From assembly GCF_003334335.1 (NCBI RefSeq), contig NZ_QOWQ01000018.1: a stretch of DNA of 64,000 nt; one strand, given 5' to 3'. The notes under the pieces were generated by a model. The model saw only the letters and a program-made list of their open reading frames with translations, did no database searches and was not told the origin of the DNA. Every line of letters starts with the position of its first letter. The first letter of the stretch is position 1. This document shows, piece after piece, positions 13,751 to 63,535 of this stretch. Source of the stretch: Escherichia coli (GTDB lineage Bacteria > Pseudomonadota > Gammaproteobacteria > Enterobacterales > Enterobacteriaceae). Position numbers and translations under genes: made by a program.

Positions 13751-14111
13751 GTTTCCGTGTCCATCCTTGTTAAAACAAGAAATTTTACGGAATAACCCAT
13801 TTTGCCCGACCGATCATCCACGCAGCAATGGCGTAAGACGTATTGATCTTTCAGGCAGTTAGCGGGCTGCGGGTTGCAGTCCTTACCGGTAGATGGAAAT
13901 ATTTCTGGAGAGTAATACCCAGTCTGTTTCTTTGATAATTGCGCTGTTTTTCCGCATGAAAAACGGGCAACCGACACTCTGCGCCTCTTTGAGCTGACGA
14001 TAACCGTGAGGTTGGCGACGCGACTAGACACGAGGCCATCGGTTCACACCCGGAAAGGCGTTACTTTGCCCGCAGCTTAGTCGTCAATGTAAGAATAATG
14101 AGTAAGTTACG
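13751..14111 (+). promoter_or_regulatory. rne 5' leader (autoregulatory UTR, ~361 nt in K-12); start approximate
   Basis: Long non-coding interval between rluC and rne; K-12 rne is known to carry a long structured leader through which RNase E autoregulates. Boundary not determined from sequence. Confidence 0.5.
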
Positions 14112-55938: not shown

Positions 55939-56328
55939 ATGAAACGTTATTTACGCTGGATTGTGGCGGCAGAATTTCTGTTCGCCGCAGGGAATCTTCA
56001 CGCCGTTGAGGTAGAAGTCCCGGGATTGCTAACTGACCATACTGTTTCATCTATTGGCCATGATTTTTACCGAGCCTTTAGTGATAAATGGGAAAGTGAC
56101 TATACGGGTAACTTAACGATTAATGAAAGGCCCAGTGCACGATGGGGAAGCTGGATCACTATAACGGTCAATCAGGACGTTATTTTCCAGACTTTTTTAT
56201 TTCCGTTGAAAAGAGACTTCGAGAAAACTGTCGTCTTTGCACTGATTCAAACTGAAGAAGCACTAAATCGTCGCCAGATAAATCAGGCGTTATTAAGTAC
56301 GGGCGATTTGGCGCATGATGAATTCTAA
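55939..56328 (+). CDS. csgE: Curli secretion specificity factor
   Basis: 129 aa with signal peptide; matches CsgE. Confidence 0.95.
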
Positions 56329-56352
56329 ATAAAAAATTGTTCGGAGGCTGCA

Positions 56353-56769
56353 ATGCGTGTCAAACATGCAGTAGTTCTACTCATGCTTATTTCGCCATTA
56401 AGTTGGGCTGGAACCATGACTTTCCAGTTCCGTAATCCAAACTTTGGTGGTAACCCAAATAATGGCGCTTTTTTATTAAATAGCGCTCAGGCCCAAAACT
56501 CTTATAAAGATCCGAGCTATAACGATGACTTTGGTATTGAAACACCCTCAGCGTTAGATAACTTTACTCAGGCCATCCAGTCACAAATTTTAGGTGGGCT
56601 ACTGTCGAATATTAATACCGGTAAACCGGGCCGCATGGTGACCAACGATTATATTGTCGATATTGCCAACCGCGATGGTCAATTGCAGTTGAACGTGACA
56701 GATCGTAAAACCGGACAAACCTCGACCATCCAGGTTTCGGGTTTACAAAATAACTCAACCGATTTTTAA
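56353..56769 (+). CDS. csgF: Curli assembly component
   Basis: 138 aa [33 protein letters not shown]...; matches CsgF. Confidence 0.95.
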
Positions 56770-56795
56770 GCCCCAGCTTCATAAGGAAAATAATC

Positions 56796-57629
56796 ATGCA
56801 GCGCTTATTTCTTTTGGTTGCCGTCATGTTACTGAGCGGATGCTTAACCGCCCCGCCTAAAGAAGCCGCCAGACCGACATTAATGCCTCGTGCTCAGAGC
56901 TACAAAGATTTGACCCATCTGCCAGCGCCGACGGGTAAAATCTTTGTTTCGGTATACAACATTCAGGACGAAACCGGGCAATTTAAACCCTACCCGGCAA
57001 GTAACTTCTCCACTGCTGTTCCGCAAAGCGCCACGGCAATGCTGGTCACGGCACTGAAAGATTCTCGCTGGTTTATACCGCTGGAGCGCCAGGGCTTACA
57101 AAACCTGCTTAACGAGCGCAAGATTATTCGTGCGGCACAAGAAAACGGCACGGTTGCCATTAATAACCGAATCCCGCTGCAATCTTTAACGGCGGCAAAT
57201 ATCATGGTTGAAGGTTCGATTATCGGTTATGAAAGCAACGTCAAATCTGGCGGGGTTGGGGCAAGATATTTTGGCATCGGTGCCGACACGCAATACCAGC
57301 TCGATCAGATTGCCGTGAACCTGCGCGTCGTCAATGTGAGTACCGGCGAGATCCTTTCTTCGGTGAACACCAGTAAGACGATACTTTCCTATGAAGTTCA
57401 GGCCGGGGTTTTCCGCTTTATTGACTACCAGCGCTTGCTTGAAGGGGAAGTGGGTTACACCTCGAACGAACCTGTTATGCTGTGCCTGATGTCGGCTATC
57501 GAAACAGGGGTCATTTTCCTGATTAATGATGGTATCGACCGTGGTCTGTGGGATTTGCAAAATAAAGCAGAACGGCAGAATGACATTCTGGTGAAATACC
57601 GCCATATGTCGGTTCCACCGGAATCCTGA
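56796..57629 (+). CDS. csgG: Curli secretion channel lipoprotein
   Basis: 277 aa MQRLFLLVAVMLLSGC lipobox; matches CsgG. Confidence 0.96.
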   Translation: MQRLFLLVAVMLLSGCLTAPPKEAARPTLMPRAQSYKDLTHLPAPTGKIFVSVYNIQDETGQFKPYPASNFSTAVPQSATAMLVTALKDSRWFIPLERQGLQNLLNERKIIRAAQENGTVAINNRIPLQSLTAANIMVEGSIIGYESNVKSGGVGARYFGIGADTQYQLDQIAVNLRVVNVSTGEILSSVNTSKTILSYEVQAGVFRFIDYQRLLEGEVGYTSNEPVMLCLMSAIETGVIFLINDGIDRGLWDLQNKAERQNDILVKYRHMSVPPES

Positions 57630-60633: not shown

Positions 60634-60817
60634 TTATCATTATGATCTACAAAGGCCACCAGCATAACAAATCCGTGGTCGGTGGCAAAAAAAGCAGATT
60701 TCGCTTATTAAAACCACACATTGATTGAAGTTTGAATAAACGCGCGATTTTTTCAAAAAGTTTGTTGACCTCAGGTCATGATTTCCCTAAATTAGCGCCC
60801 GTTCCAGCAAGACAGGA

Positions 60818-60905
60818 ACGACAATTTGGTGAGGTGTCCGAGTGGCTGAAGGAGCACGCCTGGAAAGTGTGTATACGGCAACGTATCGGGGGTTCGAATC
60901 CCCCC
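60818..60905 (+). tRNA. serX: tRNA-Ser (anticodon GGA)
   Basis: 88 nt GGTGAGGTGTCCGAGTGGCTGAAGGAGCACGCCTGGAAAGTG...GGTTCGAATCCCCCCCTCACCGCCA: D-arm GAGTGG, anticodon loop CCTGGAAAG, long variable arm, T-arm GGTTCGAATCC, encoded CCA. Confidence 0.95.
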
Positions 60906-60911
60906 CTCACC

Positions 60912-60945
60912 GCCAGATTACAAGCGCATGTTATTGTTTAACATG
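60912..60945 (+). terminator. Rho-independent terminator of serX
   Basis: Hairpin aagcgcatgtt-attgttt-aacatgcgctt followed by a T-run, 7 nt after the tRNA 3' end. Confidence 0.8.
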
Positions 60946-61064
60946 CGCTTTTTTATTTATCCTTCCAGACAGTATGCCACCGGGTATGCCATCTGAAACC
61001 GGTTTGTATGAGCCGCGATCACATCTTATCGGACAATTTCCGATCTTTAAGCATACTGGCAAAG

Positions 61065-61910
61065 CTATACTGACAGCATGTCAGGATAGTGTTCTGCAAT
61101 AATATCATTCAGTCGCTCAACCAGTTCCGGTTTTCTGAACGTGATATACGCGGAGCCCTTCTTAAAGTATCTGATACTGAACATCTCATCTTCATAGTCC
61201 TCTTTCCCCTGAACAGACTGGATGTGCTCATCCAGATGAATGGTGATGTTTTCCCGATTGTCGGGGATCGGTTTGCCGCTGAACAGGTGCAGCATTCTTT
61301 CCAGGTCGGTAAGTCGATCTGCCTGTTGCCCGCTGTTCAGATGAAATCCCCACCGGTCCCACCTCACCAGATTGTTGACGATAATTTTACTGCCAAATTT
61401 ACAGGGTGAGTTGGTTTTGTAATTCCAGCTCAGCACTCTGAAGACGTTGATCACTCCTCGCTCAAACACGTCATCCTTATTCTGGTGCAGTTGCTCAAAT
61501 GTGCTCCAAATGTTCGCTTCACTGATTTCCGGAAAGTTATCGTACTCCAGTGAGCGGTACCATGTATCACGGGCCTGCGCATCCATTAATGACAGCATCC
61601 CGGAACGTTGCATCAGGCCACGCCAGATTTCGCGATCGAGATTGCGGGTGATGGCTTTCATTGCGGTTTCCGGTTTCTCCATGAGCCAGCAGCCGCAGCG
61701 AAAATCCTGTTTCATGGCCCAGTCCCGGGCGGTTTTACCGCCAATGCTTTCCGTCAGTACCGAGATTTCAGCCAGTTGCCGGATAAGTGTGTCGATTTGC
61801 AGCAGCGCACTCTTTCGTACAGCCAGAATGTGGCGGATACTGGTTGAGCAGATAACGTCCGTATGTCCGTTGACCAGTTCCGGGCGGGAGATTGTGATAT
61901 CTGACATCAT
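61065..61910 (-). CDS. Uncharacterised 281-aa island protein (possibly DUF4942-like)
   Basis: Intact ORF MMSDITISRPELVNGHTDV... with Shine-Dalgarno aaggaaaaacg before the ATG; no recognisable catalytic motif; family assignment from memory of island annotations, not searched. Confidence 0.6.
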   Translation of the reverse strand: MMSDITISRPELVNGHTDVICSTSIRHILAVRKSALLQIDTLIRQLAEISVLTESIGGKTARDWAMKQDFRCGCWLMEKPETAMKAITRNLDREIWRGLMQRSGMLSLMDAQARDTWYRSLEYDNFPEISEANIWSTFEQLHQNKDDVFERGVINVFRVLSWNYKTNSPCKFGSKIIVNNLVRWDRWGFHLNSGQQADRLTDLERMLHLFSGKPIPDNRENITIHLDEHIQSVQGKEDYEDEMFSIRYFKKGSAYITFRKPELVERLNDIIAEHYPDMLSV

Positions 61911-61991
61911 CGTTTTTCCTTTTGGTTTATAAACGAAAACGCCAGCCGTATTCAGGCTGGCGTCAGTGGAATGAAGTCTGGTGAGTAAGAC

Positions 61992-62189
61992 TCACCTGTT
62001 CTGTTGCAGAAGCTGCTGTTGGCGCAGGGTACGGATATCTTCCCTGGCCTGTTCAATGCAGGGCAGCAGTGCTGCTGAATCCGTTTTATCCTCATCGTTG
62101 TCGAAGATAATCCCTGATTCGCAGTCAATATTGTCCTGCAGCCACGCAATCAGAATATCCAGCGCCGTTTCTGTGGTTAATGATTTCAT
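61992..62189 (-). CDS. Small 65-aa island protein (possibly DUF957-like)
   Basis: ORF MKSLTTETALDILIAWLQDNIDCESGIIFDNDEDKTDSAALLPCIEQAREDIRTLRQQQLLQQNR, 16 nt downstream of the YeeW-like stop; acidic, helical; unsearched. Confidence 0.45.
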   Translation of the reverse strand: MKSLTTETALDILIAWLQDNIDCESGIIFDNDEDKTDSAALLPCIEQAREDIRTLRQQQLLQQNR

Positions 62190-62205
62190 GTTGTGAATTT
62201 ACGGG

Positions 62206-62694
62206 TTACCAGTCGAAAGTGGGGAACCCCGGCAGACATTCTGCGCCGGCGTCCAGATGAATGAGACTGACGCCATAACGCCGGGTGAGAGTGACGACCA
62301 GACGACGGAACGTTCTTGACAGGCCCAGGCGTTTAAGCCGCAGAACCGGGTACGACCATGCATCGGTACGTAACAGATAGCCGCTGCCTGTAAAATGAAT
62401 CCATTCTGTTTCGCCGTCGTCATTAGTCTGGTGTGACAGCGAGTACAGCCAGGCGTTGTCCGTTTCCGTGATATGTGCGGTACTGCAACGTATGCCGGTA
62501 AGGGTTGTTAACGGTGGTGGTGTACTGGTTGACTGCTGGTCGGATTTATCGACCACGCGGAGTGAATAACCGTTTTCAGAGACCTTGTTAATCAGTTCAG
62601 CGAGATTAACACCATCGACGTCAACGACAATGCGCCCCATGTTCAGCGCCTGCATGTTAATGCTGTCGGCTTCCGGCGTCAGGGAAAGGTTCAT
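62206..62694 (-). CDS. YeeW-like protein (DUF5983-type), full length
   Basis: 162-aa [57 protein letters not shown]...; its ATG overlaps the CbtA stop as ATGA; position matches yeeW downstream of cbtA. Confidence 0.6.
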
Positions 62695-63074
62695 TGTTTC
62701 GCCTCCTCCGGATGCTTGCCCAGGGTAATGTTATTTACCATTCTGTAATTGTCCCGGGTCATCAGGCCGGTCGCCCTGCGAGCCCGGAGAATATCAATGC
62801 TGTTGATTAACTGAGACGACGGGGCTCCTGCGCTGAATCCCGGCTGGTCAGTTCGTACCAGCACGTATTTTTCAACGAGAAAGTTCACCGCGTCACACAG
62901 TGAAATCCCTGCCTCAATATGCTGCTCAATCACACGTTCATCAGCGAACGGTGTGTCATTCAACGTAAGGCCATAGTGCTGGTCCAGCAGTCGGGTGAGC
63001 AGTGTCTGCCAGATTTCAACCGGAGACGGGCAGCGCGATGCCGCCCGTACGTGTGTGTCGGGTAATGTTTTCAT
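62691..63074 (-). CDS. cbtA: CbtA-family toxin of a type IV toxin-antitoxin system (YeeV/YkfI/YpjF-like)
   Basis: Start at ATG 63074 gives 127 aa [70 protein letters not shown]..., near-identical to remembered YeeV-family toxins. Confidence 0.9.
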
Positions 63075-63154: not shown

Positions 63155-63535
63155 CTATTCCGGAGGGTTACTTTCCGTTTCGGTCGCAGGATAAACAGCC
63201 AGATAAACGTAACCACAGGAGCCGAGGGTGTCGGCATCGCAGGTCAGCCCTTTCGCATACAGCGTGACGGTATGCTGATGCCGGGGATTCAGTTCACCGC
63301 TGGTGAGCATGAGTTCCAGTTGTTTCATCAGCAGTGGAAAAGCCTGGTCCAGATGGTATGCATCCGCATTGCTGAACCGGCCTCTGATACCGGCGCGGTC
63401 TGCAAGGTAATGCAACCGGTTACCCTCCTGCACCAGACGTGCCCCGAAACAGGGCGTCACGGTGCAGGGCAGCCCCCACCAGGGGCGGTCTTTGTTGTCG
63501 TCGGGAAGCGTTGTCCCGGGGAGTGTGTCTGACAC
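63155..63535 (-). CDS. cbeA: CbeA-family antitoxin of a type IV toxin-antitoxin system (YeeU/YafW/YfjZ-like)
   Basis: Probable GTG start at 63535 gives [54 protein letters not shown]... matching the remembered YeeU N-terminus ([13 protein letters not shown]...). Confidence 0.88.

Follow-up and report, generated by a model that had tools for sequence, protein, structure and literature searches.

Positions 61065 to 61910 on the minus strand of a 64,000-nucleotide stretch of Escherichia coli DNA (RefSeq assembly GCF_003334335.1, contig NZ_QOWQ01000018.1; the whole stretch is called the window below) encode a protein of 281 residues at the end of a chromosomal island, next to the tRNA gene serX. 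We found that the gene is real, intact and already catalogued as an E. coli island gene of the Pfam family DUF4942. Very probably it serves mobile DNA as an accessory gene, in agreement with the first-pass annotation of the window, made from the letters alone, which had raised, as speculation, an accessory function on an integrative element. With regard to function, our analysis suggests a reading that we regard as plausible and hold tentatively, namely that DUF4942 proteins are non-catalytic accessories that serve establishment or anti-defence when mobile DNA enters a new cell. A role in helping mobile DNA to settle in a new host appears more likely than one in defending the host against phages. 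The general role is read from genomic context, and the biochemical mechanism, the engagement of DNA or of a partner, we infer.

The coding sequence (61065..61910, minus strand) is supported by the open reading frame (ORF) list, the match to Pfam PF13708, the RefSeq annotation, the AlphaFold model and the ratio of nonsynonymous to synonymous substitution rates (dN/dS). The ORF of 281 residues starts with the first ATG of a tandem ATGATG; the RefSeq/PGAP start is the second ATG (61065-61907 of the window, 280 residues, WP_001431817.1, "DUF4942 domain-containing protein"), and the sequence is otherwise identical (100%). A Shine-Dalgarno AAGGA, read from the sequence at 61917..61921 (minus strand), precedes the first ATG by 6 nt and the second by 9 nt. 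The intact ORF of 281 residues with a good ribosome-binding site, as first described, is thus present. Membership of a Pfam family calls for a significant hidden Markov model match over most of the model, and the protein matches DUF4942 over all of it (E = 3.9e-66, score 222.8, model positions 1-190 of 190, residues 88-277). The earlier statement that no motif could be assigned therefore holds for function and fails for family, since the protein belongs to DUF4942. It is indeed conserved and functionally uncharacterised: relatives fall into 2067 representative clusters (50% identity) at E below 1e-3, and DUF4942 is a family of unknown function. Among the PHROGs, the protein matches two families of unknown function and phrog_6263, "DNA methyltransferase", at E = 9e-17, the latter match spanning positions 82-285 of a 548-position profile. 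No NCBIfam family was matched at E up to 1. In the literature searched, DUF4942 appears in four passing mentions only, and nothing was found under PF13708 or under the plasmid names pCTX-M3 orf25 and ydiA.

The AlphaFold model, computed from an input of 61 diverse relatives, is confident (predicted local distance difference test score (pLDDT) 89.5, predicted template modelling score (pTM) 0.82). In the predicted layout, residues 1-17 are disordered, residues 25-160 are helical and residues 175-274 form a small alpha/beta domain. A search of the PDB by sequence, with either the single protein or a 61-sequence profile, found no related solved structure. A Foldseek search of AFDB50 returned, among the 50 matches listed, solely DUF4942 members or methyltransferase-fused relatives and no other fold, and for this reason the predicted DUF4942 fold is taken to be one without a characterised counterpart. 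The Pfam and structure-model searches that had been proposed at first reading were thus run and yielded a family and a fold with no known match, and neither the profile nor the structure searches assigned a housekeeping function, a result that would have spoken against an accessory role. Conservation extends over the full length of the protein. Eight residues are near-invariant (W96, W117, T137, S161, N167, D202, H255, and N268), and they are common to the stand-alone and the methyltransferase-fused branches of the family, whose mutual identity is only about 25%. S161, D202, and H255, together with N167 and N268, are polar, and the first three occur in the chain order Ser-Asp-His.

The gene is widespread in E. 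coli. Its DNA is present in 3929 of 5426 complete genomes (about 72%), with a median of 2 copies and a maximum of 8, nearly all of them chromosomal, and at least 80% of the ORF is present in 3644 genomes. In 3684 genomes, 80% or more of the co-linear stretch YeeU through DUF4942 is present. K-12 carries only cbeA-cbtA-yeeW and is missing the DUF4942 gene, which is probably why the gene has no K-12 name or experimental record. Comparison with close copies gives a dN/dS of 0.14-0.32, and none of the 20 copies sampled is interrupted, so the frequent disruption that would have contradicted the first-pass annotation was not seen. Among the best 150 of the 2067 clusters, the full-length proteins mostly stand alone and have about 255-300 residues. 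To judge from the sequences, then, DUF4942 is a functional gene family under purifying selection and no relic; the selection, the intact copies and the stand-alone majority together argue against a relic.

The establishment reading was suggested by the plasmid relatives, as the family is typical of the leading region, the part of a conjugative plasmid that enters the recipient first, where it occurs alongside ArdA, KlcA, PsiB, and Ssb. Plasmid leading regions are enriched in anti-restriction, anti-SOS and orphan methyltransferase genes. By tblastn, relatives at 31-39% identity are found on 4330 of 72,556 plasmids, 3962 of which are predicted to be conjugative, and the five plasmid homologues examined align at the same identities from query residues 1-18 to residue 279. 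The window protein is thereby homologous to the leading-region proteins YdiA/YgfB (survey families 24 and 76, below). The plasmid family, YdiA/YgfB/Hp22, occurs on conjugative plasmids of the types IncI1, IncK, IncL/M, and IncHI1B/FIB, and we checked in the sequence record that Hp22 of pESBL is a DUF4942 gene. On the IncK2/Z plasmid pSH275-2 and the IncI1 plasmid pESBL-EA11, the DUF4942 gene is the co-oriented ORF closest to the transfer origin (oriT) and nikA, and stands first in a series of genes, among them ArdA, PsiA, PsiB, a ParB-like protein, and DUF905. The copies on IncL/M (pOXA-48-like) plasmids have ssb, an antirestriction gene, JAB/RadC, and Hha around them, in the interval from the partition genes to the relaxase. 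A published survey of leading regions (Samuel et al. 2024, PMC11541004, Suppl. Table 1) lists DUF4942 as enriched, at a median position of 1 from oriT; family 76 of the survey, with 551 members (p = 2e-100, median position 6), belongs to DUF4942 as well. In the same survey, families 2 (DUF905/YkfF), 3 (DUF932/YafZ/YubP-like, median position 1), and 9 (KlcA) are homologues of other genes of the island block in which the window gene lies (PMC11541004). That block is conserved and runs KlcA-type antirestriction gene, RadC/JAB, DUF987, YeeU, CbtA, DUF5983, DUF957, and DUF4942, the last of these ending it. Because DUF905, YafZ, KlcA, and DUF4942 are all shared, the island block may be regarded as a chromosomal counterpart of the plasmid leading region. 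A location among the first ORFs after oriT, co-oriented with the transferred strand, is seen in the plasmid homologues, typically at the very first place, and not in the window copy, which abuts serX.

In the mechanism that we propose, the protein would be an accessory for establishment or anti-defence that does its work while the DNA of the element is entering a new cell. It would be a non-catalytic module that engages DNA, or a partner in DNA modification or restriction, and would not itself be a DNA-methylating enzyme. The chromosomal island copy would be a retained piece of a gene set resembling a leading region, and it may now be largely idle cargo, as no integrase is annotated in the island of strain EC5, which is identical over window 60700-62200 (see below). 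We also considered a more specific version, in which DUF4942 is a structurally unprecedented establishment or anti-restriction class that is the first product of incoming conjugative DNA and that phages have repeatedly fused to orphan N6-adenine methyltransferases; this we consider possible and rather doubtful. Several observations weigh against the establishment reading. The isoelectric point (pI) of the window protein, 6.1, is neither strongly basic nor acidic in the manner of ArdA, and the PDB and AFDB50 searches gave no fold match in support of any biochemical activity. Hp22 was non-essential for maintenance and transfer of pESBL in laboratory transposon sequencing (PMC4288162). The window contains no oriT or relaxase, so that "leading region", applied to the island copy, is an analogy. 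Finally, the window, the remainder of the island and the pESBL leading region all lack a methyltransferase of the NPPF type, and a partner in cis is therefore absent.

A minority of the relatives carry the DUF4942 domain fused to a methyltransferase. In metagenome relatives of 460-559 residues, 37-41% identical to the query, the domain is followed by a core with the motifs FxTP, LEPSAGxG, and NPPF, that of a gamma-class N6-adenine DNA methyltransferase. On IMG/VR viral contigs, relatives at 29% identity or above are stand-alone, and those at 27% or below are fusions of 437-674 residues, in which the same motifs follow the DUF4942 domain. These fusions adjoin genes for a ParB-methyltransferase, a Dcm-like methyltransferase, a primase, and terminase. 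In the viral fusions, some 90 additional residues separate the two domains (consensus RPLPFAV...GG...SGCIPD), and contigs with fusions often stack several orphan methylases, with the ParB- or Dcm-like methyltransferase beside the fusion. The fused proteins have no C-terminal target-recognition domain, and the DUF4942 half, with the short middle insert in the viral forms, would then be their only candidate for engaging the substrate. Since the near-invariant residues are common to stand-alone and fused proteins, DUF4942 probably does the same thing in both branches.

The window protein itself has nothing of the methyltransferase core. No methyltransferase Pfam domain was found in it at E up to 10; its FxTP, S-adenosylmethionine (SAM)-binding and NPPF motifs are missing, no [ND]PP[FYW] motif occurs in the stand-alone ORFs, and in alignment with fused relatives the protein stops before motif X. 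The older labels "restriction methylase" and "restriction endonuclease subunit M" are consequently wrong here, as both SAM motif I and catalytic motif IV are lacking. Homologues of the NPPF core also occur on their own, as proteins of about 160 residues; they are carried by 5000 plasmids or more (of the 5000 counted, 3894 are conjugative) and are annotated 'ydcA putative adenine-specific DNA methylase' or class I SAM-dependent methyltransferase (e.g. OZ026763.1 45920-46396). These YdcA-like plasmid methylases form a second, little-studied family, distinct from M.EcoGIX. Identity of the fusion core with M.EcoGIX, the leading-region methylase of single-stranded DNA (ssDNA), was considered and rejected, as M.EcoGIX is a beta-class enzyme with a DPPY motif and the two have no tblastn similarity.

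The fusions and the conserved polar residues allow other readings of the activity. S161, D202, and H255, with N167 and N268, could form an active site for a nucleic acid or a small molecule, in which case the fusions would join two enzymatic activities. That these residues are kept across branches at about 25% identity, in a fold that leaves room for a new active site through having no solved counterpart, speaks for such an enzyme, yet no known catalytic motif or enzyme fold was found in the NCBIfam, Pfam, and PDB searches and conserved buried polar residues can be purely structural; we therefore judge a cryptic enzyme unlikely. Similarly unlikely, in our estimate, is a subunit for specificity or regulation that would operate in trans, together with a YdcA-like, Dam or HsdM methyltransferase, and would redirect or stimulate methylation of the incoming DNA. 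Fusion of the domain to the gamma-class N6-adenine core in several lineages (some of them the relatives at 37-41% identity), the absence of any other target-recognition domain from the fused proteins, and the abundance of ydcA on at least 5000 plasmids would all fit a subunit of this kind, but neither the island nor the pESBL leading region contains such a methyltransferase. A third reading takes the domain as what is left of a decaying methyltransferase gene and without present function. The older 'restriction methylase' labels, the missing catalytic half and the EC5 island devoid of an annotated integrase between serX and pgaA point that way; the low dN/dS (0.14-0.32), the intactness of all sampled copies, conservation along the full length and the preponderance of stand-alone proteins of about 255-300 residues among full-length members of the best 150 of 2067 clusters all argue the opposite, and make decay very improbable.

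Two further readings start from the neighbourhood of the gene. The first-pass annotation had suggested an addiction function, which would make the protein an accessory component of the adjacent CbtA/CbeA type IV toxin-antitoxin module. The gene does end a co-linear YeeU-CbtA-DUF5983-DUF957 block that is found whole in as many genomes as given above (3684, against 3644 with at least 80% of the ORF), and CbtA lies within six ORFs in 21 of 50 stand-alone loci on viral contigs. Co-occurrence is nevertheless not obligate. The toxin-antitoxin part alone is found in 4973 genomes at 13,991 places vs 7,291 places for DUF4942, K-12 has cbeA-cbtA-yeeW alone, no CbtA or YeeU is annotated nearby in the five plasmid regions examined, and a terminator-like hairpin separates DUF4942 from the genes upstream. 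We therefore regard an addiction partnership as improbable. An anti-phage function, the other possibility raised at first reading, would make the gene a piece of defence cargo; islands often carry defence genes, and the toxin-antitoxin module adjoins this one. No match was obtained, however, among the 5027 defence-system models of PADLOC-DB v2 (no family at E up to 1), the family is present in phages themselves (it occurs on viral contigs and has its own PHROGs), and on plasmids it is enriched in the anti-defence leading region. Defence against phages is accordingly among the least probable of the readings considered, and an establishment or anti-defence accessory of mobile DNA remains the one we put forward.

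The approach to the gene is marked by a conserved hairpin. A terminator scan located a GC-rich hairpin at 61964..61938 (minus strand), with a 10-bp stem of 7 G-C pairs and a 7-nt loop, followed by UUUUCGUUUAU; it occupies 61938..61964, between the DUF957 gene and the DUF4942 gene, and the 91-nt hairpin region folds as RNA at -28.5 kcal/mol (z = -4.3 vs shuffles). A hairpin with a T-run on the strand of the ORF, reported at first reading, is thus confirmed. The conclusion then drawn from it, that the gene may be transcribed on its own, fares less well, as the gap between hairpin and ATG measures only about 27 nt and a scan of it found no sigma-70-like site. More plausibly, the hairpin would terminate or attenuate transcription coming from the genes upstream; it does not point to a separate promoter. 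Of 19 diverged island copies (54-92% protein identity), 17 have an equivalent GC-rich hairpin and T-rich tail ahead of the gene, 10-27 nt before the ribosome-binding site, and the stem sequences vary among copies (GACGCCAGCC/GGCTGGCGT, GCGCCTGCC/GGCGGGCGC, and GGCCCGC/GCGGGCC). Because the structure is kept while the stem sequence changes, a conserved terminator or attenuator that governs entry into the DUF4942 gene is suggested, and with it a regulated read-through into the gene. In pESBL and F, ssDNA promoters have been described as large stem-loops in which -35 and -10 boxes are re-formed; a plasmid-type ssDNA promoter was considered for the window hairpin and rejected, its stem being just 10 bp.

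The position of the gene at the end of the island could be fixed by comparison with K-12. The chromosomal anchor is serX, a tRNA-Ser(GGA) gene identified by ARAGORN at 60828..60915 (plus strand). BLASTN homology to K-12 MG1655 covers ghrA and serX and ends at 60919, 4 nt past the tRNA, which places the island junction at 60919/60920. The island thus has as its last gene the DUF4942 ORF, with a stop codon 150 nt short of the tRNA. The earlier description of the ORF as the last gene before the tRNA, beside a toxin-antitoxin module, is borne out by this end of homology and by the CbtA and YeeU neighbours. The tRNA is abutted by the toxin-antitoxin/DUF4942 end of the island and not by an integrase. 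Directly after serX, in island DNA, the terminator scan found a 12-bp hairpin followed by TTTTATTTAT at 60922..60950 (plus strand), which probably acts as the tRNA terminator at this junction; as it lies beyond the K-12 homology, the apparent serX terminator is supplied by the island. Upstream of the DUF4942 gene, all on the minus strand, are the genes for DUF957 (61992..62189, 65 residues; ORF list and RefSeq annotation of an identical locus), DUF5983, which is YeeW-like (62206..62694; ORF list and RefSeq annotation), a CbtA-family type IV toxin (62691..63074 from the RefSeq start, the raw ORF reaching 63137), and a YeeU/CbeA-family antitoxin (63155..63535 from the RefSeq start, the raw ORF reaching 63643).

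The window segment 60700-62200, with serX, the DUF4942 ORF and the DUF957 gene, is found at 100% identity in many complete genomes. One of these is strain EC5, whose island measures about 61 kb and extends from serX to pgaA. Its genes on the same strand, in order toward the tRNA, encode a GTPase, Ag43, IrmA, DUF905, DUF932, the KlcA-type antirestriction protein, RadC/JAB, DUF987, a hypothetical protein, YeeU, CbtA, DUF5983, DUF957, and DUF4942. The EC5 island has no annotated integrase between serX and pgaA, and neither it nor the window has an annotated relaxase or oriT. Being riddled with insertion sequences (IS) and devoid of an annotated integrase, the EC5 island looks immobilised. In EC5 an IS1 lies between csgF and csgG (locus L001, 15402-16099); the window has no insertion there (56328-56830) and its csgDEFG genes are intact, so the window strain differs from EC5 while the serX end of the island is common to both.

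The gene was known and annotated before, and the enrichment of its family in leading regions has been published in a supplement. For this window, the correct label and the corrected interpretation are the main result, and the gene itself is ordinary. The family is large, with its 2067 clusters, its presence in about 72% of complete E. coli genomes and its relatives on more than 4000 plasmids. If the more specific version of the establishment reading is true, very common E. coli islands of the CP4 type would carry a fossil or usable 'leading region', and would be, or derive from, conjugatively mobilised elements. Should DUF4942 counter host defences or steer DNA methylation, the anti-defence repertoire would gain a new fold, and the CP4-type block that recurs in E. 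coli pathogenicity islands would gain a functional reading. This would also bear on how pOXA-48-like and IncI1 resistance plasmids become established in new hosts.

Among known systems, the leading-region anti-restriction proteins ArdA and KlcA/ArdB have no sequence or fold similarity to the window protein, and identification as an ArdA-type acidic DNA mimic was rejected at its pI of 6.1 (family median 7.2); M.EcoGIX, the beta-class DPPY enzyme, is unrelated to either DUF4942 or the NPPF core. The DUF4942-methyltransferase fusions of phages and metagenomes (PHROG 6263) share the domain and its near-invariant residues with the window protein, which ends where their methyltransferase core, resembling M.TaqI, M.BseCI, and HsdM, begins. 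The plasmid proteins YdiA/YgfB/Hp22 have homology over nearly the full length, a similar size, a stand-alone form, and similar neighbours (DUF905, KlcA/ArdB, JAB/RadC, and Hha). They differ in setting, since the plasmid genes lie beside oriT and a relaxase and the window copy beside a tRNA on a chromosomal island, and the plasmid copies examined are without CbtA and YeeU neighbours. At the level of the island, the Shigella SRL pathogenicity island shares with that of EC5 the fec operon, an aspartate racemase, and Ag43; the EC5 island is also SRL-like in capU/virK/lpxM and a group II intron, and has many IS elements. On SRL, the DUF4942 gene appears under the name orf56 and is related to L0010 of enterohaemorrhagic E. 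coli (PMC6980539). The catalogued DUF4942 gene of E. coli islands has an identical or near-identical sequence and the same place, ending a YeeU-CbtA-YeeW-DUF957 block on tRNA-linked islands; here there is no difference to report, and the window ORF is that gene.
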